Below, one piece after another: positions 4,299 through 60,312 of a DNA stretch of 64,000 nucleotides. Both the position numbers and the translations under genes were made by a program. The notes beneath the pieces were generated by a model. It worked only from the letters and a program-made list of their open reading frames with translations, was not told the DNA's origin and searched no databases. The stretch lies in NCBI GenBank assembly GCA_000004695.1, contig CM000152.2:1344001-1408000 (forward strand), written 5' to 3'. This stretch comes from Dictyostelium discoideum (Eukaryota). Within the stretch, counting starts at the first letter, position 1, and the number at the start of each line of letters is the position of its first letter.

Positions 4299-5246
4299 CT
4301 ATTCCCACCAATCCTTAGTAATTGGAATATAACCTTGTTTAATTTTATCAGAAACAAATTCTTCCAAAGTTTTATAAGAAACAGTTGTTGTTGGTGATTG
4401 ACCACTTAAAGAAGTTGAGTTTCTTGTGGGAACGGTAGTACTAGCTTCATTGAATTTAAGTTCTTGATTTAAATTGTTTACACTTGAAGAACGAGAAATT
4501 GTAGGAGAAGTTGTACTACTATTAGTTGGCGATATATTGGAACCTCCACTACTACCACTACTATTTAAACTTGATGCTAAAAGTTCATTTAAATTTTGTG
4601 ATGAACCACTTTTTGGTATATTATTACTTGAATTTGAACTTGAACTACTACTACTACTACTACTGCTACTAACCCTTCTTGGTGGTAAATTTTCAACATG
4701 ATAGCCATGAGAAGATGATTTAATGATTGAATGTAATATTTTTCTATGAGGATCGGATAAATAAGAGAATACAAATGAACCTGGTCTACTATTAGAATTT
4801 CTAATGATGAAACCACCAGCAGGTGCACCAGAAAGTAGAGATGCAACACCTTGAGTTTCAAGTGTTTGAAAGAACCATCTCTTTTCAAATACACCGGCCT
4901 CTTTTAACTTCATTTTTGCTTTTTTCTCTAATTCATGAGCGATATCAGTACCAGGTCTAATGGCAGCCCAACCTCTTAAAGCTTCAGCCCAATTAAAGAG
5001 AGCATAATGATGATTTCTTTTAAGTTTTACAGCAAGTTGAAACTTTTCAATTGCAGACTGATATAATTTTTCAATTTCAGCTTTACCATGTGCTTTGATA
5101 TATGTTTTATTTGAAATTAATCTTGCACGCATTGATAATAAAATTCCCCAATGTGTAAGTATTTCATAATCATCTGGTTTTGATTGAATTGCTACTTTAA
5201 ATTTCTCTGCTGCTTGTATAAATAAATTATCTGCAGAATTTGTTAA

Positions 5247-5306
<60 letters not shown>

Positions 5307-5775
5307 ATTATCATCACTTCCATCATTTGATCCGTCAGGATTATTATTATTATTATTAATATTATTTGAAGTATTATTTGAAGTTGAAGTAGTAGTTGAA
5401 GTATTTGTTGGTTGTTGTGGTTGTGGTTGTGGTTGTTGTTGTTGTTGTTGTTGTTTTGATAATGAAATTGCTTGATGAAATAAACTTACACCTTGTTGAT
5501 AAGGAATGGAGTGAAGAAATTTAACTTTTGGTGTAATAGAAATGATATCATCAGGTTGTATGGATTCACTTTGATCACCCAATTTTTTATATAAACCATC
5601 TCTAAATACAATACCCATCATTTGTGAAATTCTATACAATAACAATTCCAAAGAAAATCCATCTAAATCACAACTTTGTAATAATGAAATACACATCATT
5701 CTATTTAAAAATTTACAAATATCCGGTAAATTAATATTATAATTTATATTATTGTTATTATTCGGATTATTATCA

Positions 5776-5830
<55 letters not shown>

Positions 5831-6881
5831 CTATACTATTATTATTATTATTATTATTTATTAATGGTAATGATCTTAAAAAACTTCTTAATCTATTTTT
5901 AATTTTTCTAGCTATAATTTCAGTATTTATAATTGTTGACAAACGTTGGTCAATTGCATGAAAATCAGTTTTTTTTAAACGTTGTAAATAACGAACGTTT
6001 ATACCTTCACGATGCATACTATCGATTAACATTAGATTTTGAGAAAGTTCCATAATATTTTTACATTTTGTTTTCTTTACTTTTTGATTCATTAATAATA
6101 CAAAACTTGGAATGATATGATTGAGTAAACGTTTTTGTGATCTTTCAACCTCTTCATTGTTTTTATCTCTATCGGGACCAGCAAACTTTGTAAAGGCATC
6201 AGAGGATAGGGGCATCTTTGAACTTCGTACCAATTCGGGTCTAAGAAGTGTATAAAGATGTGAACCTGTTTTACCGGGTATTGGCTTCTCTGGTGGGAAA
6301 ACTCTAGCTGTATCGATTACAACGAAATGATTATCCTTTGTGATATGTCCTTCAATATCGCATGGCCCATATAGAAATGTTTTATTATCGCTCTGACCAG
6401 TATAATGACCTTTTAAATTCAATATTTCACCGGCTTTTCTCATTTTGTCTTCCATCTCTTCGCTTTTATTATAAACTGTTTCACCACCATCATTGGATCC
6501 ATACACCAATGTTTTATCACCATCGATATTAAGTTGAGATGTTGCAATTAATCTATAACCCATATAATCGATCAATGTCATCAATGGTAAAAACAAACCA
6601 TCGATTTGACAATTGAAATATCCCATTAACCCTTTTAATTCATGACCTGCTGACTTCATTGCAAATGCATCGCCACCATAAATACCATAACAATCTACTG
6701 CAAACTTAAAAAATATACCACTCTTTAAATATTTTAATCCACCTGCAACTCCACCTGCATCATATGATGGTATTGTCCATCCACTTGATAATCCTTTCTC
6801 TTGAATAATAGTTACACCATGTTTTGTTGCAACATTTACAAATTCTTCTGCAATTGCTTGAATTTTTTGACTTCTTTTTCT
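4299..6881 (-). CDS. Multidomain protein with an N-terminal Clu (clustered-mitochondria) domain, a central TPR-like region and a C-terminal SH2 domain; the 5' end is unresolved
   Basis: The 786-aa ORF (ATG at 6659) stays open in frame upstream to a TAA at 6882-6884. That upstream stretch encodes a compositionally normal peptide (RKRSQKIQAIAEEFVNVATKHGVTIIQEKGLSSGWTIPSYDAGGVAGGLKYLKSGIFFKFAVDCYGIYGGDAFA, then MKSAGHELKGLMGY...LIDYMGYRLIATSQL), which looks like a Clu-domain signature. The middle of the protein has TPR-like helices (AEKFKVAIQSKPDDYEILTHWGILLSMRARL...NWAEALRGWAAI). The C-terminus has an SH2 domain (WFFQTLETQGVASLLSGAPAGGFIIRNSNSRPGSFVFSYLSDPHRKILHSI...YHVENL, with the FLVR-type Arg) at about 4690..4900. 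The coding region contains long (AAT)n and (CAA)n tracts. No in-frame ATG exists between 6660 and 6881, so an upstream exon or start is needed. Confidence 0.65.
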
Positions 6882-32505: not shown

Positions 32506-34681
32506 ATTAAATTTATCATCAAATTCATTAATTGAAGTTACATCATTAGGACATTTAAATAAATTAAAAAGATTAATATTGAATAGAAATAATTTAATTG
32601 AATATTCAGTTCAAGGACTTTCATCATTAGTTTATTTAGGATTATGTAATAATAGAATCGATCGTATTACTGATATGTCAGATTGTAAGAAATTGATTAA
32701 TATCGATCTTAGTGGTAACCGATTAACATGTGGTGATGGATTTGATCATTTCTCAAAATTGAAATCATTAAAAGTTTTAGATTTGTCAAGTAATTCAATC
32801 AATTGTTCATTAATTGATTTTCAAAAAAAGATTTTAGAACCGTTAAAGAAATCTAAAACTTTAGAATATTTATCATTTGAAAATAATTTAATTGAAAAGA
32901 AATATGAAGAGTTTAGATTATTTGTAATTAATGAATTACCAAAATTAAAATACTTAAATTGGGTATTAATTTCAAAAGATGAAAGAACAAAAGCTTCAAA
33001 ATTAGATAGTGAAGGTTTCTTTTCAAAACAATTATCAATTTTAAGTGTTACTCCAGTTGTTCATAATAATAATAATCCAAATAATACTGTAACATCAGCT
33101 CAATCTTCACCATCATTAAGTAGTGTATCAACACCAATTCCAACTCCATTAAATACTAGTAGTAATAATATTGGTGGTGGTGGTAGTGGTACTACTACAA
33201 GTGTATCAGTTGGATCATCACCAACAATTAGAGGTATGCCATCATCACCAAATAGTAGATCAACAAGTTTTATTCAACGTAAACCATCGGTTGGTGCAAA
33301 TATGATGCCAAAATTAAATTCTTCCTTGAATAGATCAACTGATTTCCTTGGTAAAGAAAGAGAGAATCATCAATCAACTTCACCATCTTCTTCATCATTA
33401 TCAATATCATCATCATCACAAAATAATAATAGTAATCATCATCATCATCATCCAAAATCAATTGATGAAACACCAGAGGTATTATCACCATTTGATATTT
33501 TACAATCAAAAGTTAATGCAGAGAATTGTTTATCTTCATCACAACAAGATTTAATTGTTAATCATAATAATCTAACAACAGCTAGTCAGATTTTACAAGA
33601 AATTAAACCAACTAAAGAATTAACTAAACAAGAAACTGAAGATTATATTGATATTCTTTTGAATGAATTACAACCAAATAATACAGATTTCCCAACATTT
33701 GCTTCCGTTATTGATCAAAAGGTTTATTTGGATTTGTTATATCGTGCAATCATTGAGGATGCAATTCCAGAGGAACTAATTGAAGAATGTAATAAATCAA
33801 CTACAACTGCTGCTACTGCTGCTGCTGTCGTTGATTTTGTTACACCACAATTAACATCGTTATCATCGTCCTCTTCTTCTTCATCAACAACACCACCACA
33901 ACCACAACTACCACCACCACCACCACAACAACAACAATTAGATTTATCATTACCATTGCCACCAGTTAATATTATTAATATGCCAATGGACGATGATGAA
34001 CTAATTAGTGTACCAACTGATGAGAGTGAATTACCAGTTGTATCGACTATTGTACCATCATTAGTTAAAGAATCATCAAGAGAATCATTATTAGTTACAA
34101 CTATTGATAACTCAACATTATCAACCACTCCACCATTATCATCAACTACACCACCATCACCATCACCAAAATTACCAACTCTTGAAGAAACTATTGAAAG
34201 TGTTGTAACTGCTAAACCATCTTCAACCACCACTACTGCCACTCAAACTAATAAAGTTTCTGGTGGTTCTGCTAAAGAAATTTGGACTAAAATTGATCAA
34301 AATACTGCAACCACACCATCAACTCCATCTAAAAATTTACCAAAAAGATTACCATCTCAATCAAATCTTATTAATAATAATAATAATAATAATGTTATAA
34401 ATGTACCACCACCAACTCAATCAATTTTAAAACCAGTAGTAGGAGGAGGAAGTGGTTCAACACCATCATCACCACAAATGAAACCAATGGCTAAACCAAT
34501 TGCTAAAATTCCAGCAGTTTCCACAACAACCAATACCACCCCAACTTCCACACCAGGTTCACCAAGTAAACCAATTATGAAACCAGTCATTAAAAAAGTA
34601 CCTGCAATCTCATTAAAACAAGATCAACCACCAATTGTATCACCACCACAACCACAACCACAACCACCAATTGTACAACAA

Positions 34682-34720
<39 letters not shown>

Positions 34721-35465
34721 CCACAACAACATTTTAAATCAGAAATTGATAAAGCATTAGCAGATATTGATTCATGGGGAGTTATACCAACAGCACCACA
34801 AGCAGAAATTAAAAAACCAATAATACCACAAGAATTATTATCAAATATTCAAAAAGTTGAAAGTCCAACTGAAATGGTTGAAAATGCAACCTCAAAATTG
34901 GATGAAATGATTATGGAATATCATAATACTTCACCAACTTCTTCACCAACTAATACAAGAAAGAGTATTACACCTGTTCAACAACAACAACCAATTCAAC
35001 AACCAATTCAACAACCAATTCAACAACCAATTCAACAACCAATTCAACAACCAATTCAACAACAACAACAACCACCAATTCAACAAATTGATCAAGTTCA
35101 AAGAATGATTAATAATGAAACTAATAGAATTGGATCAATGATGATATTAGGACAAAACATATCATTACCAAATTGGATAGTACCACATGATCAAATTCAA
35201 GTTGGTAGTAGATTAGGATTAGGTAGTTTTGGTGATTGTTACACTGGTAATGCATTCTCAATACCAACGATTTTAAAGAAATTAAGAACTCAAAGATTTA
35301 CTGATCAATTTTTAGGTCAATTTAAAAATGAAGTTATGCAAATCAGAGAATTACAACATGAAAATCTTGTACCAGTTTCAGGTTGTTGTTTAGATAATAA
35401 TATCTATATCGTTCATCCATATTATGACGCAAGTAATTTACAAACATTATTATTTGAACAATCAC

Positions 35466-35542
<77 letters not shown>

Positions 35543-38125
35543 CATACAATCATCAGTAATGAATTCATTCATCGTGTTTCATTGGGTATTTCAAAAGCAA
35601 TGACTTATTTACATTCACATGATGTTGTACATCGTGCATTAAAATTGAATAATATTCTAATTGATCGTGTTAGTGGTAATGTGTTGGTACGTGATTATGG
35701 TTTCAATTTCGTAAAGGATGGTATTTTCCGTACTGGTCAACAAAGTTCACCTTATTTAGCACCAGAGTTATTCAATAGTAATTGTAACCAATATGACACA
35801 AATTCTGATCAATTTGGATTCGCAATGATTTTATTACAATTATTCACACGTTCACCATTGTTCCAAGATATTCATGTATCTCGTATAACTGATACAATCT
35901 TAAATGGTGTTCGTCCAGAGATACCCGATAATGTTCCATCAGTATTTAGTCGTTTAATTAAAGCATGTTGGAGTGCTGATTCATCAGCTAGACCATCATT
36001 CTTAACAATTTCAAAGATTTTATCACAACCATTTCAACGTATTTTCGCATTATCACCATCAACTACAATTACAAAACCAATTGTTTCAACTGGTAATACT
36101 ACAATTGATAGCAGTAGCAGTAGCAGTGGTAGTGGTAGTAGTAGTGTAGTTGGTTCAGTTAATAGTACAACTATACCACCAGTAAATAATAGTAATACTG
36201 GTAGTACTGGTAGTACAAGTGCAACAGTTAAACATCAATTTAGTGAAACTGGTGAATTAAATAGAAAGATGATTTTAGTATTAGAACGTATTGTTTCAAT
36301 GTTATCAACAGCAGCAGCATCAGCATCAACATCAACAATATCAACTGATTCAATAGATTCAATTAAACGTGCACTTAAAGCATTAGAGAATTTAAGTTCA
36401 CCAGAGAATCATTCATCAATGGTTGGTATTGGATTAATGAGATCATTATGTTTTATTGGTACTATTCATTTAGCAGAAATTGATGAACAATTATTACGTG
36501 TAATTTATTCTCTATCAACTAATGAACAACTATCAAATGAATTCATATTAGCAGGTGGTTTCACACCATTATCACAATGGGTATCATCTTCATCATCATC
36601 ATCAACAAGTGCAAACATTTCATTATTAGCAATTAAATTATTAACAGTATTAGCTGATGAACAACATTTACATCATGTAAGATTAACTGGTATTTTATCA
36701 AGTTTAACTCAACAATTTGTAAATTATACAAGTAATAATCAAAATGGTGGTGGTGGTAGTGGTGGAGGTGTAATTAATGAAACTATTATTTTACAATCAG
36801 TTGGTGCAATGTCACGTATTCTATTGAATCAAGATAATCAAAATCAATTCATTGAAGAGGGTGGTGTATCATCATTATTGAAAATGTTATTAAATTCTGG
36901 TAATAGTTTATCAATGAGAGCATTGTTAGCATTGTGTTGTTTAATCTCAAATCAAAATTGTAAATCACAATTACACAATGCTGGTATCATACCAAAGCTT
37001 ATGGAATTATTAAGTTCACCTCAAAAACTTTTAAGATTACATTCATTAAAAGTAATTGAAACAATGTCAAAAGATATTGAATTTAGAAAATTATTAATTC
37101 AAGATAATTGTTTATCATTATTAGTTAATTTATTATTAAATTCTTATAATGGTACTAATACTGGTATTGGTAACAATACTACTGGTAATAATAATGACAG
37201 TCAAGAATCAATTTGTTCAATTTTATCATGTATCGGTTCATTATTAAAGAATCAAATTGCATTAGAATCATTTTATCAAAGTAATGGTGTTGATGTTTTA
37301 ATTAAACTTATTGGTTATAATCAACAAATTGAAATTTTAGAATCATTATTCCCAGTGTATTGTTTATTAATTAATCATGAACAATCACGTTTGAAATTAG
37401 TACCAACTATTAATCAATTGGTTGAGATCTTGTCAAATTCAACACTAAAAGAATCAATTATAATTTCAATTTTGAAATGTTTAACATTATTCTCGAGTCA
37501 TAGCTCTTGTATTGAATTCATTGAGCAGAGTATGTCAGTTTCAATAGTTTCAACACTACTCATTCGTAATGAGAATAATTATGAAATTAAAATCCATTCA
37601 CTCAGATTCGTAAGTTCCCTCGCAAAGGTTAATAACAAATTGGCTGTCAATATCCATATGATGGGTATCCTGCAAACACTAGTCAACAATCTTTATGACA
37701 AGAATTCCATGATCAAGGATGAGGCAATATCAACCATCTCTTGGTTAGTAAGCTCTCAAGAATGTAGATCCATTTTCTTACAAAAGAATGTTTTACCAAT
37801 GTTATTCGATTTCCTTTCAACTAGAAATGTTGATATCATGGAGAGATTGATTTGGGCAATCTCTTTCTTTGCTCTAGATGATTCTGCTCAGTCCTTAATG
37901 AGAGACAATCAACAATGTATTCAATTCATCGTCAATTGTTTAGATAGACATGAAGAGGTTTTCAAAACACTATCAATTAAAACCATTTTAATCTTATCTC
38001 AAAAACAAATTAATCATCAAGCTTTAAAAAGAGTTGGTGTAGATTTCCAATTGCAAGTTTTATCTTCTTCTTCAAACAGATCAATTCAATTAGCTTCTAA
38101 AAAGATTTTATCTTTATTAAGTTAA
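32506..38125 (+). CDS. Leucine-rich-repeat protein with a central predicted pseudokinase domain and a C-terminal ARM-like helical-repeat region (LRR-pseudokinase-ARM); 5' exon unresolved
   Basis: The frame is open and LRR-like from the acceptor at 32504-32505. The repeats (LNLSSNSLIEVTSLGHLNKLKRLILNRNNLIEYSVQGLSSLVYLGLCNNRIDRITD...LINIDLSGNRL...LKVLDLSSNSI) continue through the listed M at 32579. Long S/T/P/Q-rich linkers follow, including a (PIQQ)n repeat. A kinase fold spans about 35190..36010 (GSRLGLGSFGDCY...IPTILKKL...EVMQIRELQHENLV...VVHRALKLNNILI...VRDYGFNF...SPYLAPELF...RPSF). It has HRA in place of HRD and DYG in place of DFG, so it is probably catalytically inactive. The C-terminal 600 aa are armadillo-like repeats. 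Confidence 0.75.
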
Positions 38126-45107: not shown

Positions 45108-47685
45108 ATGTCAAGTGGTGATAGTAATTTAAAGAGAAGAAGAGGAGGAAATACTGGTCAATCATCAAAATCATATAATACATGGACTGATTATGAAGAA
45201 GATTTAGAAGAATCTGGTGAATTTAATCAATGTATGTTTTATTTTAATTATTTTAATTTTTTATTTTTTTTTTCATAAATTATAAAATAAAATAATAAAA
45301 TAATAAAATAAAATAAAACTATATAAGAAAAAAAATAAATTTTTTTAATAAATTATTAATAAAATTATTATAATAATAATTTTTATTTTTTTATTTTTTT
45401 TTTTAGCAATAAAAAAAACAACAAATACATCAAGTGCAACATTAACATCATCAGAAGAAAAAGGATCACTTTTAGATTATTCAAAGAGGTGTATATTAAA
45501 ACAAGATAATAAATCAAGACCAATTTGGGTTTGTCCAGATGGTCATATATTTTTAGAGACATTTTCAGCAATTTATAAACAAGCATCAGATTTTTTAGTT
45601 GCAATTGCAGAACCAGTTTGTAGACCACAAAATATACATGAATATCAATTAACACCTTATTCATTGTATGCAGCGGTCTCTGTTGGATTAGAAACCAATG
45701 ATATTATTACAGTTTTAGGGAGATTATCAAAATTAGCACTACCAAAAGAGGTTGAACAATTTGTTAGACAATGTACACAAAGTTATGGTAAAGTGAAGTT
45801 AGTATTACAAAAGAATAAATATTTTGTGGAATCTGCATACCCAGAGGTATTGGAATTCCTCTTGAAAGATTCATCAATTGCAACAGCAAGAATAAAACCA
45901 ACATTGGAAGAATCTGTGGTGGATCCAAAAACTGGTTTCATCATTAATAAAGAGGTTGTTACAGGTGCACAGATTTCAGGTGGTTTACAAGCGAATCAAT
46001 CATTGGATCCAGTTTTAAAGAATGATGCACTCTCTAATCTATTGGAGGAGGAGGAAGAGGATACAGTAAATAATTCAGATCAACATTTTCATTCATTTGA
46101 AATTGATCCACAACAAGTGGAAGAAGTGAAAAAACGTTGTATTCAATTGGATTATCCAGTGTTGGAAGAATATGATTTTCGTAATGATACAGTGAATCCA
46201 AATTTAAATATAGATTTAAAGCCAACAACAATGATTCGTCCATATCAAGAGAAATCTTTATCGAAAATGTTTGGTAATGGTCGTGCTCGTTCTGGTATTA
46301 TTGTATTGCCATGTGGTGCTGGTAAATCACTAAGTGGTATTACTGCAGCATGTACAGTGAAAAAGAGTATTCTGGTGTTGTGTACAAGTGCAGTGTCGGT
46401 GGAACAATGGAAATATCAATTTAAACTTTGGAGTAATATAGAGGAGAGACAAATTTCAAAATTCACAAGTGACAATAAGGAAAAGATTAGTAATGTTGCA
46501 GGTGTTACCATTACCACCTATACAATGGTTGCATTTGGTGGTAGACGTTCAGCAGAATCGTTAAAGATTATGAATGAAATTACCAATAGGGAATGGGGTT
46601 TGGTATTATTGGACGAGGTACATGTAGTACCAGCAGCAATGTTTAGAAAGGTTTTAACAGTGACAAAAGCCCATTGTAAATTGGGTTTAACAGCAACATT
46701 GTTACGTGAAGATGAAAAGATTCAAGATTTGAATTTCCTTATTGGTCCAAAACTTTATGAGGCAAATTGGTTGGATTTACAAAAAGCAGGTTTCCTTGCA
46801 AATGTTTCATGTTCAGAAGTTTGGTGTCCAATGACAGCGGAATTTTATAAAGAATATTTAATCAATGATTCTCAAGGAAAGAAGAAACTTCTATATACAA
46901 TGAATCCAAATAAATTCCGTGCTTGTGAATATTTAATTAGATTCCATGAACAAAGAGGTGATAAGATCATTGTTTTCTCTGATAATGTTTATGCACTTCA
47001 AAAGTATGCCAAAGGATTGGGTAGATATTTCATTTATGGACCAACATCAGGCCATGAAAGAATGAGTATTCTCTCGAAATTTCAACATGATCCAACCGTA
47101 AGAACCATTTTCATTTCAAAGGTTGGTGATACCTCTATCGATATTCCAGAGGCAACCGTTATCATTCAAGTTTCATCACATTATGGTTCACGTCGTCAAG
47201 AGGCACAACGTTTAGGTCGTATTCTTCGTCCAAAACCAAAATCTGATGGTCTTTACAATGCTTTCTTTTATTCTTTGGTTTCAAAAGATACTCAAGAAAT
47301 GTATTACAGTACAAAGAGACAACAGTTTTTAATTGATCAAGGTTATAGTTTTAAGGTCATTTCAGAGTTACCTGGTATTGATCAAGAAGTAAACTTAAAA
47401 TATTCTTCAAAACAAGATCAACTCGATCTATTGGCTCAAGTATTGGGTGAAGGTGAAGATAGTGGTAAAAATGAAATTTTAGAAGAAGATTTCGATGATA
47501 TTACTCGTGGTGCAAAGAAATCAAAATCTTCTGCTCCAACAGTTTCAAGAACTACTGGTGGTTCAACTAGAGCATTATCTGGTGGTAATGATATGAACTA
47601 TATGGAATATCAAGCTCCTGCAATTTATAAAAGTATTCCAACTCAACATGCATTATTTAAACAACGTGCTAAAAATAAACAATAA
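45108..47685 (+). CDS. repB: TFIIH/NER DNA helicase XPB (ERCC3/Ssl2), about 800 aa; 2 exons, join(45108..45231,45407..47685)
   Basis: Exon 1 ([41 protein letters not shown], then a T) has a GTATGT donor at 45232. A poly(T)AG acceptor sits at 45405-45406. Exon 2 encodes ...[65 protein letters not shown]..., running into the ORF at 45664..47685 (whose listed M is a TTG). Walker A (VLPCGAGKS), DEVH and motif VI ([11 protein letters not shown]) are present. The protein is colinear with human XPB over its full length. Confidence 0.9.
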
Positions 47686-50804: not shown

Positions 50805-51481
50805 TAAAAAATAATAATAATAGTAATAATAAATAAATAAATAAATTACACTTACCTAATACAATCAGCAAAATAAATACCTTTACCAAATCTGTAACCA
50901 GTTTTTGGAGCAGATGGTGGAGCAATTCTTAATCCCTGCGAGACAATCGATACGAAATTAGTTAACCTACTACCATGCCATAAGAGTAATCTATTCTTAT
51001 CTTTTGCCCAAGGAGTGAAACGTTCACTTTCATTCTCTCTCTCAAGTGAAAGAATATCTTGAACACAGATATTGGTTCTAAATTGTTTATCTTGACTATT
51101 GGCAACATAATCTACCAAGGTTTTATAAACTACACTATCTTTATCAAGTGGAGTGAGTTTGGTTTTGAGTGTAATATATTGATTTTCAATCATGTTACCC
51201 TCGAGTGATTCAGTTTGCTTCTTAAGATTAGCGGCAATATCAACATCGATAAGAGTTTCAACCAATTGCATCTTGGCTTTAATTAGGTCGACTGTATCAA
51301 TTAATGGTGCAGTTTGATTACCAAAGTTATGAGGGATCAAAGTATAAAATCTAGTTGCACAATCTAAAAGTAAATTACGACTTGGATTAGCTGTGTTTAA
51401 AATGTCTTGAATTTCTGATAAAACCTTTTTAATAATAATAATAATAAAAATAGTTGGTAAATTTAAAATTATATTCAAAAT

Positions 51482-51512
<31 letters not shown>

Positions 51513-53588
51513 CTTACTTTATAACCTTCAATTAATTGTGATTTTTTAATTTTACCTAATGGCATTTTTTCAGTATCAACATTCATAGATTGTAATTGTT
51601 TTTTCATCATTTCAGGATCAAACATTAATTTAACTAAATCTAAAACTCTTTGTGGTAAACCTTCTTTCTTTGGTTCAATTTCTTGAGAGGTTGAAGTTGT
51701 TGTTGTTTCAGATTTCTTTCTCTTTAATACAGTTTCAACCAAGTTTTCTTCTTCCTCTTCATCATTACCATCATCTAAACTAATCATATAGTATTTACGT
51801 GGTAATTTTTTGAATTTATAACGATCTTCCCATTTTTGAGCAGTAAAGTATTCAAAACGCTCAGCAAACTCTGAAAGAGCAGACTCGTAAGAGGAGTAGG
51901 TTGTATCTTTTTGACCACCAATTTGATTGACACCAACACGACCCCATCTTAAATAGACGGTATATCTTTCTTTGCCTCTTTGTTTTAACATTTGAATTTG
52001 GTAGAATCTATTAGAGTTACTTTCAATATCCAAACTATTGAGCATAACATTCATTGCAGTATAGCCATATTTTTCATCATGATGAACATAGATTTCATAG
52101 CCACCATAATTAAAATCGTCATTAACTTTAAGAATGTTTGATCCTGGTTTTGGTTCTTTCTTTGGTACAATGGTTGGTTCTAACTCTCTCTTTTTGGATG
52201 AGGTGGTAGTGGTAGTGGTGGTTTGTCTTTTAACGACTTCAACTGGTTTGAAATATTTTTCAGTGAATAATAAAACATCATCAGCTAATTGAGATGGTGC
52301 AATAATAAATGGTTTTGAAACTAAAGTTTTTCTTAATTCAACACCTTTACCAGTTCTATTACATAAATCTTGAATCCAAGATGGTGGGAAAATTGGAATA
52401 TTATCAATAGCATTTTGAACCTTTTTAGTTTTTTTAGCCTTATTAACTTCCTCTTCACTTGAAATCATTAAAGTTGCATTTAATGGATCTTCAACAACTT
52501 CACCACCATGAGATTGAACTAAAGTTTTAATTTTCGTTGGGGCAATACCTAATACTTTTTCTGCACCAGCAATTGCAACTACCATATTAACACATTCATT
52601 ACCAACTGCTACTTCATCTTCATCTCTATTTGGATCTAAAGAAGATGTATCTTGAGTTTGTGCTTCTCCACTTGCATTTTCTTCAGTTTGTTGTTCCTTA
52701 TCTTGCTCTTGTTCCTCCTCTTCTTCTTCTTCCTCTTCTTCTTCACCAGCATCAGTATATTTTGTAGTTGATTTTGGATAATCTTTTGAATATTTAAAAG
52801 TTGAAAGGAATTTATTTTTTGAAAGATCATCAGGAAATTGAACAGCCCATCTTTCAATTGAATCACCTTTCCAATCACATTTTGTGAAACCTGAAATCCA
52901 ACCTTTACATTGATATTCGATACCATTGAAAAGTATATCGAAATTCTTACAAGTTGGACATCTACCTGGACGACCTTTTAACATCCAATCAGAGAGAGTA
53001 TGAAGTAAATGAACTGGTGATACCTTATCAACATAACCTTTATTATATTGAATGATGTTTTTAATTGCTGGTCCCTTCAAGTTATCGGCAATACTATCTT
53101 TAACTTCCCATAATGCCTTTAAATATTTCTCTCTTTGTACCTCTGATGCTGATTTTGGATCATACTTTTCAGATGAAAAATAAGTTGTTTTAATTGATAA
53201 TTGGTCTTCCCAACGAAGGTATTCCCAGTGAATTAAATCTGTAAATGATGGTACTTGTGGACATTTACATTTTAAATGATGCCATGATACATCCCTAATA
53301 ATAATAAAAAAAAAAATAAAAAAAAAAAAAAAATAAAAAAAAAATAATAATAATAAATAGTTAGTATAAAATAAAATAGGTTTTAAAAATTATCATATAA
53401 TATAAATGAATGATATCATTTGATAATTAAATAATATTAAATACAAACATTCCATCAAAGTGTTTTGATTTTGTTTTATAACCAATACGAACTGCTTCTT
53501 TATTAATACCTCTTTGACAGGTTGAACATGTTGATCTATCACTCTTTGCATATTCAATCTCATAAGGAGATGTATTTTTTGTTGCCAT
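50183..53588 (-). CDS. PARP1-like poly(ADP-ribose) polymerase (zf-PARP, PADR1, BRCT, WGR, regulatory and catalytic domains), about 938 aa; 5 exons, complement join(53449..53588,51518..53294,50856..51424,50411..50658,50183..50265)
   Basis: Exon 1 (MATKNTSPYEIEYAKSDRSTCSTCQRGINKEAVRIGYKTKSKHFDG, then AT of a split codon) has a GTTTGT donor. Exon 2 follows an ATTATTAG acceptor at 53295-53296 and begins (M)DVSWHHLKC. It is a zf-PARP finger; compare human YRVEYAKSGRASCKKC...MFDGKVPHWYHFSCF. Exon 2 also carries PADR1 (KGRPGRCPTCKNFDILFNGIEYQCKGWISGFTKCDW), BRCT and WGR (YEIYVHHDEKYGYTAMNVMLNSLDIESNSNRFYQIQMLKQ...YLRWGRVG). It ends ...IEGYK at a GTAAGT donor at 51517. Exon 3 holds the regulatory domain and the start of the catalytic domain (...LLDCATRFYTLIPHNFG...LLWHGSRLTNFVSIVSQGLRIAPPSAPKTGYRFGKGIYFADCI) and ends at a GTAAGT donor at 50855. 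Exon 4 reads SKSFSYCFTSSDCPTALMLLCEVSLGDMNEL...LVVPLGKISKTGLST and ends at a GTAAGT donor at 50410. Exon 5 reads STCTHNEFIVYKIEQVRIKYILRVYNGK. All phases are consistent. The catalytic motifs H-G-S, Y-F-A and E (in LLCEVSLG) are present. Confidence 0.85.
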
Positions 53589-55876: not shown

Positions 55877-58800
55877 ATGAAAATAATAAATTTAATAATA
55901 TTATTTTTTATATTTTTTATAAATTTAATAAATTGCCAGTTTGAATATGATGGTATTAAAATTTATGATTTAACAGAAAAACAAACTTTAACAAATTATA
56001 AGAGTATACTAAATGTGGGATATTATTGTGGTTTTTATTTAAATTTATTAATCGTAGATGAAAGAGTTGATCAAAGTTTTTATGAAGCAACTTTTTCTTA
56101 TAGTAATTTAGAGGTAATGGTTAACAGTTATAATGTACTTTATGAAAATTCAACATCAAAATTATATCAAGTATTTATTCTTTCCTCGAAAATTGGTATT
56201 ATAGAATCATTATCATTACAAACTTTAATTGATGGTACAATACAATTTCAATATCCATTGGAAAATAATTTAACATGTATTGAAATTGATGTGGATAATT
56301 TAAATATAACAGTACTTCAAAATAATAATAATTTCGATTGGAATGCCTTTCAATCATTCTATGCATTCATTAAAATCCAAGGTTTAATATATCCAGTAGA
56401 AATTGTAATTGGTAATCCATTTTATATAGAACATATTTATAGTGATGTTTATAAAGTTACATTTTCAGAATATACTGGTATAGATTTAATTAAAGATGAT
56501 TTATATAAAGATTGGAATATTTCATTATTTTTCACTTTTGATCAAGTTGAACCAATAAATGTTTATATTCCATCATTCTATGGTAGTAATAATAATAATA
56601 ATATAAATCAAAATCAAATATTAAATTTTGAAACATTTCCAAAAGATACTTTAAATGTCATACAATGTATGGGTGAAAGGTATGGACCATTATTCAAGTT
56701 TACTTTAACTTCTCCAAATATAAAGAGACCATTACAATTTATAGATCAAAATTTTGCTTATCCAAATTTAATATCATCATTGGGTGGTGATAATTATTTT
56801 CAATATATTGGTTATTTCAATACTATGTATGCAAATTATATTTCAGCTACAAATTATACATTTAAAGTTCAAAATAATGATAAAATCCAAGATTTCAATA
56901 CAACTCCTTTAATGATTAAAGATAAATTTACTGGATCTACTAGTTTTCCAATGCATATAGATCCTCCAACTTATTTTATAAATGGACCAAATCTTTTAGT
57001 GGTTTCTATTAATGGTATAAATACAGCACAATATGGTTTGGGATTATTTCATTATCAATATGCTGAAAAAGATATTTACCCAAATGCACCATTTGGTTTT
57101 TCACTTGGTAATAATTTAAATTTTAATTATAATGTATCTTTACCATTCAATTATTTAACTGTATTAAATGACTTTCATCCAAATCTAATATTTCAAGAAT
57201 ATTCAAATTTACAAACTTCAATTGAAGTTTATGATCTTCAAAGAAGAAGTAAATATTATATTTAAACTTTATTTGTATATACATATTACAACAAATTGAA
57301 TATCAAATAACATAACAATATTAATAATTATTAATTTTATTTAAATATCTATAGATTTAACTCTTAAAATTCAATCAATTGATTCTTTAGAACTTATTCA
57401 TTTATATGATTCATTTTTTTTAGTTAGAATTTCTATAATTTCACCAAATGGATTATTTAAAATTGTAATAGATGATAGTATTGAATTTAAATCTTTAGAA
57501 TATTTAGTTTCTGGTACTATATATAATGGAAACTATGAATTTAAAATGAATTTATTTGGATCTTATCTCAAATTTGTTTTATATGATAATGTTGAATTTT
57601 CACAAACTTTTTATGAAGGTGATTATTATTCAATTAATCCTATTAAAAGAATTATTTTACCAGATTTAATTAGTAATGGTAGGTTTTTTTTTAAAAATCT
57701 AATTTATTTTATTAAAAAATTTTTTTTTTTTAATTAACATATTAATCATTATTCAACCCATATATATAGTTAATTTTGATATTTATAAAATTGAAAATTT
57801 TAAATTTTTAAAAATTGATAATCCAATTGATATTACAAATAAATCAATATCAAATAGATTATATTTTAATTATTCAAATATTGATAATGTTAATAGACCA
57901 ATTGGGTTTATATTATTGGATCCATTATCATTTGATACAGTTAATCCATTTTTATCCAATAAAATTTATTATGCGAAATGGGTAAAAGAAATTGGATTAT
58001 TTGTAGTTGATTTTATAATACCTGCAAATACTCAACCAGGTTTATTACCATGGATGTTATATTTTAATTACAATGTTCAATTATTTAGCTCAAATTTACC
58101 ATTGGAAAGTCAATATCAATTGAATGTAACTTCAGACAATGTAGATTTATATGGTCCAATCTTTTCAAAGATTCAAAAATACCCAGGAAATGGTGATTCA
58201 GGTGTTGGCTGGGATATTACAATCTCTGATCCAATTAATGGCTTCACCAATGGATTTATAGTTGTAATGGGGTCAATTGATAATTCAATTTATAATATTT
58301 CAATTGGATCACCAGTTAGAGGTACCCCTGGTATTCAATCATTTGACTATAGTTTAACAATTATTAAACCTGGTGAATCATGTATCAATCAAGATTATGT
58401 TATTACTCAAGTGATTTTATATGATTCTATGGGTGTAAATTCAACATTTTCAATACAAACTCTCTATCCAAATCCTATTAAGAATCCTTTTATAAATTAT
58501 TTAGATGACATTTCAATCAATAGTTTTACTACAACACGTTGTAATTCATTAGATAATACACCACCATCTATTTCAAGTTTTGTAGTTTCAAGAGAATCAA
58601 TTGACCTTTTTCAATCAAATAGAATTGTTGAATTTAATTTTACAATTACAGATGGTGAAAGTGGTATTAAAATAAACTCTCAACATCCAAAAATTTATCT
58701 AACTAGCAAAGATTTAACAATTTTAGAATGTCAAACAAATATTTCAACCATTATAAGTTTATATACTGTTTCCTATTATTGCAGTATTGAATTACCATTT

Positions 58801-60312
58801 AAAGGTAGTGATAGTGGTTATATAATTTCAATTTATGGTTTATTAAATAATGGTGGATCTTATAAAGGTTATTCTTCAGATGAACTAAATAGTTTAAATT
58901 TACCTTGGTATATTGATGTAATGAATTCAATTAATAATAATCCAGTACCCATAATTACCAATACTAGCTCAATCACTATTTATGGTGGTGATTTATGGGT
59001 ATTTGGTTTTGGATTTAATAACAGTCAAACGATTACAGTTGAAATCAATTCAAAACAAATTACAATACCAACAAATTCAATTACTTGTTATAACACTGCA
59101 TTATTAATTTCAAATTTACGACCAACAAATAATTCATTCACCATTAAAGTTGAAAATTCAAATACTTGGGTAGTTTTTCCAATTAATTATAATTTACCAC
59201 CTATAGTTGAAATTACTTCCTCTTCAGAATCTACTTCTTCTTCCTCCTCCTCCTCCTCTTCGGGTTCTGAAATCGAAGATCAATGTTCCATATTAAATTG
59301 TGGTAATAGTAGTCAAGGTTATTGTAATGTTTATTCATGTATTTGTTATAACCCATGGTCTGGAAAAGATTGCACTCAAAAACAAATTGTTATTTCACCT
59401 CCAACTATAAATACTACAGATCCAACATCTAATATTCCAACTTTAGATAATAATAATATTTTATATAATTCATTAATTTCTATTGTATCACTTAGAGAAT
59501 TGGATTTCAATGGAAAGAGTATTAAATCATTTACATTTGATAATAAATGGTTATTAACAGAATTAGGTAAAAACAAGAATCAATACTATACAAATATTAC
59601 AACATCCTCACTGTCAACTCCAAATTTAATGGTTACAACCAATATTACAGTAACATTGGAATGGTTTACTGAATTAACCAGTGTTATTTTTGCTAAAAAA
59701 AATCTAACAATGAATCCATTTTCTGTTAAATATACAATAGAAATTTCTAAATATGCATTTTCTGGCCAATTAAATCAACTTGAATTGGTAATGTCCGCTT
59801 TATTTGGATCTTCAAAAACTAAAGACGTTTGTGCATCTCAAGAATTTATAAGCGAAAATGAAAATGATTATTTAAAAATTCAAATTCAAGATCATTCTTT
59901 AAATGGTAGATTTATTAAACGTGCATATATTGATTCAAAAGTAGCAACTGTTTCAAATGTACTTTTAGATTCTTCTATGAATAAAATTGAACAATCCAAT
60001 GAAATATCACCAAACCAAGTTCAATCTTTTGTTGGAATTATAATACCAATTTACAGTTTTAAAGCATTGATCGACCCTGATTTTAGCGTTTTATTAGATA
60101 GTAATGAAAATACAAATGAAAATAATTCAAATTCTGTTTGTACTAGTGGTTCATCTGGTTTATCAAATTCTCAATTAGCTGGTATAGTTATTGGATCCTT
60201 TGGTTTTGCATCTGTTATTGCAATTTCAATTGCTTACTATTTTTATAAAAAGAGAAAAAATCAAAATTTCATTAAAAATGTTCAAACTAAATTAAAACCA
60301 ATGAACCAATAA
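55877..60312 (+). CDS. Large secreted type-I transmembrane glycoprotein (about 1412 aa) with an EGF-like Cys module and a single C-terminal TM helix; 3 exons, join(55877..57248,57355..57678,57770..60312)
   Basis: ATG at 55877 with a signal peptide (MKIINLIILFFIFFINLINCQ). Exon 1 ends ...DLQRR (plus an A) at a GTAAAT donor at 57249. Exon 2 follows a CTATAG acceptor at 57353-57354 and is in frame with the ORF at 57546..57737; it ends ...LISN (plus a G) at a GTAGGT donor at 57679. Exon 3 follows a TATATAG acceptor at 57768-57769 and joins the frame of the ORF at 57916..60312 (listed M is a TTG). Many N-x-S/T sequons are present. The EGF-like module reads CSILNCGNSSQGYCNVYSCICYNPWSGKDCTQ. The TM helix (LAGIVIGSFGFASVIAISIAYYFY) is followed by a short basic tail (KKRKNQNF). 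Confidence 0.7.

Follow-up and report, generated by a model that had tools for sequence, protein, structure and literature searches.

Organization of the Locus

A large gene on contig CM000152.2 of the Dictyostelium discoideum assembly GCA_000004695.1 encodes a protein that combines leucine-rich repeats (LRRs), a protein kinase fold, and armadillo (ARM) repeats. The gene was analyzed within a window of 64,000 nucleotides, the whole stretch of DNA under study, and all positions given here are positions in that window. The window is AT-rich, with a GC content of 10–19% in sampled intergenic stretches and mostly 27–34% over the coding region of the gene. Two exons separated by one intron make up the gene (Table 1). 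An initial annotation of this DNA, made from the letters of the sequence, had placed the LRR, kinase, and ARM regions in the interval 32506–38125; this interval does encode all three, but it corresponds to exon 2 only, and the gene begins upstream. Exon 1 comprises 57–64 codons, opened by the ATG at 32167, and is a genuine exon, as shown by the colinearity of its product, KLPAAPKDKVRNITKFPV...KDVRPIFQKLSYPVFIDLSEG, with the N termini of the homologs. The frame of exon 2 is free of stops from 32506, directly after the AG acceptor, to a TAA at 38123–38125, and the C terminus of the protein, ...ASKKILSLLS, agrees with the ends of the orthologs. Joined, exons 1 and 2 give a product of 1936 amino acids. 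The gene is a real, intact D. discoideum gene for a large LRR-pseudokinase-ARM protein.

The gene is the one catalogued as DDB0230124 in the TKL/ARMK family. Over the 399 N-terminal residues of the Table S2 entry that were compared (PMC1420674), the joined exon 1 and exon 2 model is identical to DDB0230124, and the motif strings TILK, HRALKLNN, and DYG are the same in both. An exact-sequence look-up of the 1936-residue model gave no identical entry in the protein collection. In The Dictyostelium Kinome (Goldberg et al. 2006, PLoS Genet 2:e38, PMC1420674), ARMK is one of six Dictyostelium-specific TKL families and is described in the supplementary table as the “armadillo-repeat containing kinases”, with two members. 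DDB0230124 is entered in Table S2 as TKL/ARMK/kd with a predicted activity of “i”, TILK for VAIK, HRALKLNN for HRD, DYG for DFG, and the remark “lacks D166”; its paralog, DDB0230038, is entered with IVMK, HRSLHPKN, DYG, and the same remark (PMC1420674). The comparison with the catalogued kinome that the initial annotation had proposed leads to this entry. The assignment as a pseudokinase, its motif strings, and the link to ARM repeats have all been on record since the 2006 catalogue. Among the papers covered by a literature search, ARMK together with Dictyostelium was found only in the 2006 kinome paper, and DDB0230124 and DDB0230038 were found in no other paper; no functional study of ARMK was found, which makes this an uncharacterized pseudokinase in a tractable model organism. 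What the present analysis adds to the catalogue is modest: a wider range within Amoebozoa, a homolog from Balamuthia with the catalytic Asp, LD-like motifs in the linker, and a problem in the gene model.

An antisense open reading frame at 33724–34242 (172 amino acids) was considered as a gene and judged not to be one; its product is of low complexity, rich in Gly, Val, Asp, and Ser, and lies opposite the repetitive linker of the ARMK protein.

Table 1. Features of the ARMK gene and other annotated genes in the window (AF2, AlphaFold2; TRF, Tandem Repeats Finder)
Feature	Position	Strand	Basis or remark
Exon 1 (catalogued model)	32167–32357	+	ATG at 32167; conserved N-terminal cap MSLKGSLKLPAAPKDK...FIDLSEGIYLLE(K)
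Probable one-base frameshift	32354–32357 (AAAA)	+	three-frame translation; homolog alignment
Hidden conserved coding segment SDDFMKSCTNVIKE	32357–32398	+	one base (+1) out of the ATG frame; no internal stop; frameshift and segment together span 32354–32397
Intron	32398–32505	+	AT-rich, T30 run (TRF), AG end at 32504–32505; phase calculation
Exon 2	32506–38125	+	remaining coding sequence and stop; same span as the initially annotated interval
LRRs, about six (by eye), and a cap-like end, SDS22-like/LRR_9 type	32507–33004	+	Pfam
Linker, ~700 residues, low-complexity, presumably disordered	33047–35176	+	no Pfam domain
LD-like motif YIDILLNEL (EDYIDILLNEL; fits LDxLLxxL)	33644–33670	+	conserved in dictyostelid orthologs
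Poly-Gln tract (CAA)19	34675–34731	+	TRF
Third, weaker LD-like motif EIDKALADI	34742–34768	+
Second LD-like motif KLDEMIMEY (ATSKLDEMI...)	34895–34921	+	conserved in dictyostelid orthologs
(PIQQ)n repeat, 12-bp unit CAACAACCAATT x8.5	34985–35086	+	TRF score 169; regular expression
TKL-type protein kinase fold (pseudokinase domain)	35177–36046	+	Pfam match ~35195–36019
Gly-rich loop GLGSFG, intact GxGxxG	35216–35233	+
β3 Lys (TILK, K988 of catalogued model), retained	35276–35278	+	alignment with B-Raf VAVK
αC Glu (E1006), retained	35330–35332	+	B-Raf alignment
Poly-Asn insert (AAT)27 in kinase domain	35466–35546	+	TRF
Catalytic loop HRALKLNN	35630–35653	+	Ala = GCA 35636–35638; Lys and Asn (35651–35653) retained
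DYG for DFG, Asp retained	35693–35701	+	B-Raf and family alignments
APE motif, retained	35759–35767	+
ARM-repeat solenoid, 40 predicted helices, about 13 repeats	36227–38122	+	Pfam, AF2
CLU/eIF3_p135 protein, also SH2 match	4302–6659	−	Pfam
Tubulin-tyrosine-ligase family protein	24428–25837	+	Pfam
ERCC3/XPB helicase	45664–47682	+	Pfam
PARP (PADR1-WGR-PARP)	50855–53080	−	Pfam
ComC-like protein with DUF7034 and DUF7035	57916–60309	+	Pfam

Domain Architecture

The protein of ~1940 residues comprises, from its N terminus, a cap and approximately six LRRs, a low-complexity linker of ~700 residues, a TKL-type kinase fold, and approximately 13 ARM repeats. The order LRR, kinase, ARM had been proposed initially and is borne out by Pfam matches in all three regions and by predicted folds of the kinase and ARM regions. 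When the N-terminal 244 residues are scanned alone, LRR_4 (49.3 bits, E = 4.8e-13), LRR_8 (46.8 bits, 2.5e-12), and LRR_9 (39.0 bits, 8.1e-10) all score above cut-off. The kinase domain is central (residues ~955–1244 of 1936) and is matched in the long frame by PK_Tyr_Ser-Thr (PF07714) with E = 1.9e-34, outscoring Pkinase (PF00069) at 6e-31; the ARM region is matched by Arm (PF00514) with 34.3 bits against a cut-off of 20.6. As modeled by AF2, the C-terminal 632 residues form an all-helical solenoid with a predicted local distance difference test score (pLDDT) of 88.1 and a predicted TM-score (pTM) of 0.74. The best fold matches of this model are chains of axonemal doublet microtubules, β-catenin, importin-α, and designed ARM proteins.

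The linker carries the (PIQQ)n repeat and the poly-Gln tract that had been described from the sequence. The initial annotation had also stated that neither a Roc GTPase nor a COR domain lies between the LRRs and the kinase, and the searches agree. The whole long frame contains no Pfam match to Roc, COR, Ras, or another GTPase family at E ≤ 1. Within the linker, an hmmscan of 33281–35200 (640 residues) at E ≤ 10 gave a noise match only, with no hidden Roc, no COR, and no Ras or other GTPase family, and Pfam scans of seven homologs from Dictyostelia, Balamuthia, Protostelium, and other assemblies gave no Roc or COR match.

The resemblance to ROCO kinases that was pointed out at the outset is nonetheless there, in that LRRs and a TKL kinase are found in one protein and, just as in the ROCO family, the LRRs lie on the N-terminal side of the kinase. 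The solved structures that match the LRRs best by sequence are chains whose deposited name is “Rab family protein” (5il7, 6hlu, and 8r4b), with E = 3.9e-21; the next family follows at 2.7e-14. These chains are presumably the Roco protein of Chlorobium tepidum. Both observations would suit an ARMK protein derived from a ROCO/LRRK ancestor by loss of Roc-COR, with LRRs and kinase kept. Such a derivation is nevertheless quite improbable. Scores between one set of LRRs and another are inflated by the repeat consensus, the interval from the LRRs to the kinase is a low-complexity linker, and Roc and COR matches are lacking in the homologs as well as in the ARMK protein. The kinase domain itself has B-Raf as its best solved sequence relative (E = 1.8e-22, HMMER), with RAF, CTR1, ABL, CSK, and tyrosine kinases among the best; no Roco- or LRRK-named chain, and no ULK chain, is among the 60 solved matches listed. 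ARMK and ROCO were, moreover, placed in separate families by Goldberg et al. (PMC1420674).

Kinase Fold and Catalytic Residues

Alignment with B-Raf places the catalytic loop, vvHRAlklNNili, opposite iiHRDLKsNNIfl. Since HRA is set on HRD, the catalytic Asp is replaced by Ala rather than displaced, and HRALKLNN contains no other acidic residue. In the same alignment, vrDYGf lies opposite igDFGl, the β3 Lys in ptilKkl opposite vavKml, the αC Glu in fknEv opposite an identical fknEv, and ylAPEl opposite wmAPEv. The residue assignments first made from the sequence (an altered HRD, DYG for DFG, and a retained Lys in ILKKL, αC Glu, and APE in LAPE) are reproduced by this alignment and by that of the family. 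Of the two results that the initial annotation had named as refuting it, a shifted Asp and a Roc or COR domain in the linker, neither was obtained, and every part of its description that could be checked was upheld. The 2006 kinome catalogue classes a kinase as a pseudokinase when one or more of the residues K72, D166, and D184 (PKA numbering) are missing; D166 is absent in the ARMK protein.

An AF2 model of the kinase segment (encoded by 35120–36130) has a mean pLDDT of 77.6 and a pTM of 0.77, with 153 residues at pLDDT ≥90. The structure prediction that had been proposed for this segment thus yields a confident kinase core, the low-confidence parts being the termini, the poly-Asn insert, and the activation loop. 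Foldseek searches match the model to B-Raf and further kinases of the TK and TKL groups, with TM-scores of up to 0.88 (target-normalized). The poly-Asn insert (model residues 116–142), nearly all of which has pLDDT <50, is situated between the C-lobe helices formed by residues 107–117 and 147–166. Because it is absent from all orthologs, this tract, which the initial annotation had not mentioned, is a D. discoideum-specific expansion that is tolerated inside a folded domain.

Taxonomic Range and Conservation of the Family

The family was recovered by an exhaustive HMMER search with the kinase and ARM regions, which returned 42,301 proteins at E ≤ 0.001, nearly all of them ordinary kinases, with a small subset covering both domains. 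A word-indexed protein search with kinase plus ARM, ARM, and LRR queries gave the Heterostelium ortholog alone. That search returned neither a D. discoideum entry nor the ortholog from D. purpureum, despite 71% overall identity of the latter; for the first two queries, low-complexity words had probably swamped it. Its negative results on Dictyostelium proteins are untrustworthy.

Full-length orthologs are present in D. purpureum, Polysphondylium violaceum, Tieghemostelium lacteum, Cavenderia fasciculata, and Heterostelium album, and homologs outside Dictyostelia are found in Balamuthia mandrillaris and Protostelium nocturnum, in addition to three assembly-derived proteins. Judged by these sequences, the ARMK family is not Dictyostelium-specific. 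In Pfam scans of seven homologs, a kinase domain followed by ARM repeats is seen in all seven and N-terminal LRRs in six, the protein without LRRs being the ENA-derived P0105.

Motif states were read from an alignment of 13 family members. The HRD Asp is missing in 12 of these: the position is occupied by Ala in D. discoideum, D. purpureum, P. violaceum, and T. lacteum and by Ser, Thr, or Gly in eight others. An Asp is found only in the Balamuthia protein P0023 (KAL6057077.1), which reads HLDLKSKN and also has DFG. The β3 Lys, the catalytic-loop Asn, the Asp of DxG, and APE are invariant in all 13 members. The DFG triplet itself varies (DYG, DYA, DFA, and DFG), with Gly changed to Ala in six members. 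The retention of HLD and DFG in Balamuthia suggests an active ancestor with later loss elsewhere.

Identity to the D. discoideum protein was compared region by region with D. purpureum and with two species of groups 1/2, Cavenderia and Heterostelium. In that order of species, it amounts to 81, 50, and 55% for the N terminus and LRRs, 77, 45, and 45% for the kinase domain, 69, 38, and 42% for the ARM region, and 51, 23, and 24% for the linker. By this measure, the pseudokinase domain is conserved to the same degree as the LRR and ARM interaction domains. Such conservation in a domain long devoid of its catalytic base argues for purifying selection and against decay, and it fits a selected non-catalytic role.

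A Probable Frameshift near the 5′ End

The catalogued DDB0230124 model joins its exons through an atypical intron start, GTGATG at 32358, and by doing so omits 14 residues that constitute the start of the first LRR. These residues are encoded by the hidden segment SDDFMKSCTNVIKE (Table 1), which aligns in all nine homologs with the N terminus present, Balamuthia and Protostelium included, and is identical to P. violaceum at 13 of 14 positions. Across this region, the N termini of the homologs read ...LE(N/S)DDF(L/M)KSC(T/P)N..KE-LNLSSNS. In the ATG frame, the D. discoideum sequence instead meets a TGA at 32359–32361. The window reads gaaaagtgat at this point, and gaaagtgat would preserve the frame. 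With one A deleted, a model of 1949 amino acids results, which has no internal stop and is colinear with all orthologs; a canonical GTATGT donor then lies at 32398, exactly in phase with exon 2 (ga|a = Glu).

Two origins can be considered for this probable frameshift: a mistake in a homopolymer run of the reference, or a lesion that AX4 acquired very recently. Any lesion would have to be very recent, since the hidden segment is free of stops and differs from P. violaceum at a single position. If the AX4 copy were a recently damaged allele, its product would be truncated after ~64 residues, or made only by use of the atypical GTGATG donor, with the loss of part of the first LRR. A conserved segment lying out of the ATG frame, the in-frame TGA, and the dependence of the catalogued model on a non-canonical donor, when a canonical one sits exactly where an ortholog-like model needs it, would all accord with damage. 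The other 1848 codons are intact, however, and an assembly error in the homopolymer run is at least as likely an origin of the extra base, so that a damaged allele appears very improbable. The catalogued protein thus lacks a conserved LRR segment, probably through an error in either the gene model or the reference sequence.

LD-like Motifs in the Linker

The linkers of the ARMK family contain short motifs that follow the paxillin-type LD consensus, LDxLLxxL, and lie in a presumably disordered region; the three in the D. discoideum protein are listed in Table 1. In the linkers of 13 family members there are 24 matches to the pattern [LIF]D.[LIMV][LIMF]..[LIMFY], where shuffles that preserve composition predict 0.31; orthologous copies inflate the observed number. 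Such motifs are present in the linkers of all family members but two (P0009–P0013, P0019, P0023, P0072, P0100, and P0105 are among the carriers), and in distant members they are also found at non-homologous positions. In one homolog, FD(D/E)I(F/L)(D/G)ML is present four times. In the ~400 N-terminal residues of the paralog DDB0230038 given in the catalogue, MSELDDLLNEML, YLDTLLNDM, and LLDEMIESF can be seen, and no obvious LRR is present in that portion. The recurrence of the motif suggests possible interaction sites.

Predicted Mode of Action

The mode of action of the ARMK protein is likely to be non-catalytic, that of a pseudokinase. The analysis establishes the structure of the gene, its domains and motif states, the lack of Roc and COR, and the conservation and range of the family. 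Loss of phosphotransfer, nucleotide binding, and a role as a scaffold can each be inferred from the sequence, and the label “scaffold pseudokinase” applied in the initial annotation is to be read as a prediction of the same kind. The kinase fold keeps its nucleotide and metal ligands (GxGxxG, the β3 Lys, the αC Glu, the catalytic-loop Asn, and the Asp of DxG) and lacks the catalytic base. In the proposed mechanism, the pseudokinase domain would serve as a conformational or docking module that probably binds nucleotide and is without efficient phosphotransfer, with partners recruited by the LRRs, the ARM repeats, and the linker motifs. An LRR horseshoe and an ARM solenoid at opposite ends of the protein, together with a long flexible linker, would make a scaffold or an allosteric regulator the simplest model. 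For the regulatory spine, both the His of HRD and the exchange of the DFG Phe for Tyr would be conservative. A general suggestion that predicted inactive kinases act as scaffolds or regulators was made by Goldberg et al. (PMC1420674).

An alternative is that the ARMK protein is an atypical but active kinase, with weak phosphotransfer or phosphotransfer by another mechanism despite the Ala at the HRD Asp position. All nucleotide and metal residues are kept, as are the His and Arg of HRD and the Lys of HRxLK that is typical of Ser/Thr kinases, and the whole domain is strongly conserved. HER3 and the JH2 domain of JAK2, which also lack the HRD Asp, provide a precedent for low activity without it. 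Residual catalysis in the ARMK protein is nonetheless unlikely. The position is taken by Ala, Ser, Thr, or Gly according to lineage, so that no substitute residue is conserved, HRALKLNN offers no acidic residue elsewhere, the Gly of DFG has become Ala in six members, and the domain was predicted to be inactive by Goldberg et al. (PMC1420674).

Several points weigh against the non-catalytic scaffold that is preferred here. The αC Glu is not strictly conserved, being Arg in Heterostelium and Asp in Tieghemostelium. HER3 and JAK2 JH2 keep weak activity, and “inactive” is therefore a prediction when applied to the ARMK protein. The literature search turned up no biochemical, genetic, or expression data on ARMK. 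Should the frameshift seen close to the 5′ end be real, AX4 would carry an altered allele.

A broader reading, offered only tentatively, takes ARMK as an Amoebozoa-wide family of LRR, LD-containing linker, kinase, and ARM proteins. The family would descend from an active kinase, given that HLD and DFG persist in Balamuthia; loss of the base would have preceded the diversification of Dictyostelia and would also have taken place in the lineage of Protostelium. The LD-like helices would act as docking or auto-regulatory elements, for instance by binding the ARM or LRR surfaces of the same protein, or partner proteins. If true, this would supply a natural series for the study of how a signaling kinase turns into a scaffold, and the Balamuthia protein, with its catalytic residues kept, would allow active and inactive forms to be compared inside one architecture.

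Neighboring Genes

A second gene for a kinase with ARM-like repeats lies ~10 kb upstream on the reverse strand (~17343–22175). The kinase domain of its product lies at the N terminus and has GKGGFG, HRDIK, and DFG motifs that are all intact; the C-terminal region gives a weak match to ARM_ARMC5. This gene was considered as a tandem relative of ARMK and dismissed: the BLASTP E value is 0.04, the kinase is of another type, HRDIK and DFG are intact, and no relation is detectable other than the shared domain types. One of its introns contains a long (CAT)n run, and at 22290–22370 (read on the minus strand), just upstream of its putative ATG, otherwise AT-rich intergenic DNA holds a long microsatellite of (CA)n/(CACG)n. 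The other large open reading frames of the window (Table 1) look like ordinary housekeeping or Dictyostelium-type genes.

Comparison with Known Systems

The ARMK protein shares features with four known systems. Like the ROCO/LRRK proteins (Roco1–11 of Dictyostelium and human LRRK1 and LRRK2), it is a very large multidomain protein with LRRs N-terminal to a TKL kinase, and LRRK2 also has ARM repeats. The main differences are that the ARMK protein is without Roc, COR, and the catalytic Asp and that its ARM repeats are C-terminal rather than N-terminal.

The RAF/KSR kinases are related to ARMK through the kinase domain, for which B-Raf is the best solved match by sequence and by fold, and KSR is itself a TKL pseudokinase scaffold. 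Identity in the structural alignment is only ~25%, however, and the ARMK protein lacks the RBD, C1, and CA regions; its flanking LRR and ARM regions are unrelated to the RAF/KSR architecture.

In the C-terminal region, the likeness is to ARMC5. ARM_ARMC5 (PF24768) is the best specific Pfam match of the ARM region, and the Balamuthia homolog (112.4 bits) and P0019 (89.8 bits) score above its cut-off of 79.9. The D. discoideum protein, in contrast, scores 49.5 bits, below the cut-off, and has no BTB domain, and the fold matches of its ARM model are generic for ARM solenoids.

The fourth system is ULK4, a pseudokinase with C-terminal ARM repeats that still binds ATP and has been read as a non-catalytic scaffold (bioRxiv 10.1101/2020.06.18.159293), with STK36/Fused as its active relative. 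ULK4 and the ARMK protein both join a (pseudo)kinase domain to C-terminal ARM repeats, and in both families some protist homologs keep canonical residues; for ULK4, these are protist orthologs with catalytic residues that were lost in metazoan ULK4 (bioRxiv 10.1101/2020.06.18.159293). The two differ in that ULK4 has an N-terminal kinase domain of the ULK family and no LRRs, whereas the kinase domain of ARMK is central and is not of the ULK type. The pattern of motif loss is also opposite, as ULK4 keeps the catalytic Asp and is without the VAIK Lys and the DFG Asp (bioRxiv 10.1101/2020.06.18.159293). ULK4 is the closest functional analogy to the ARMK protein, an analogy and not a sign of membership in the same family.

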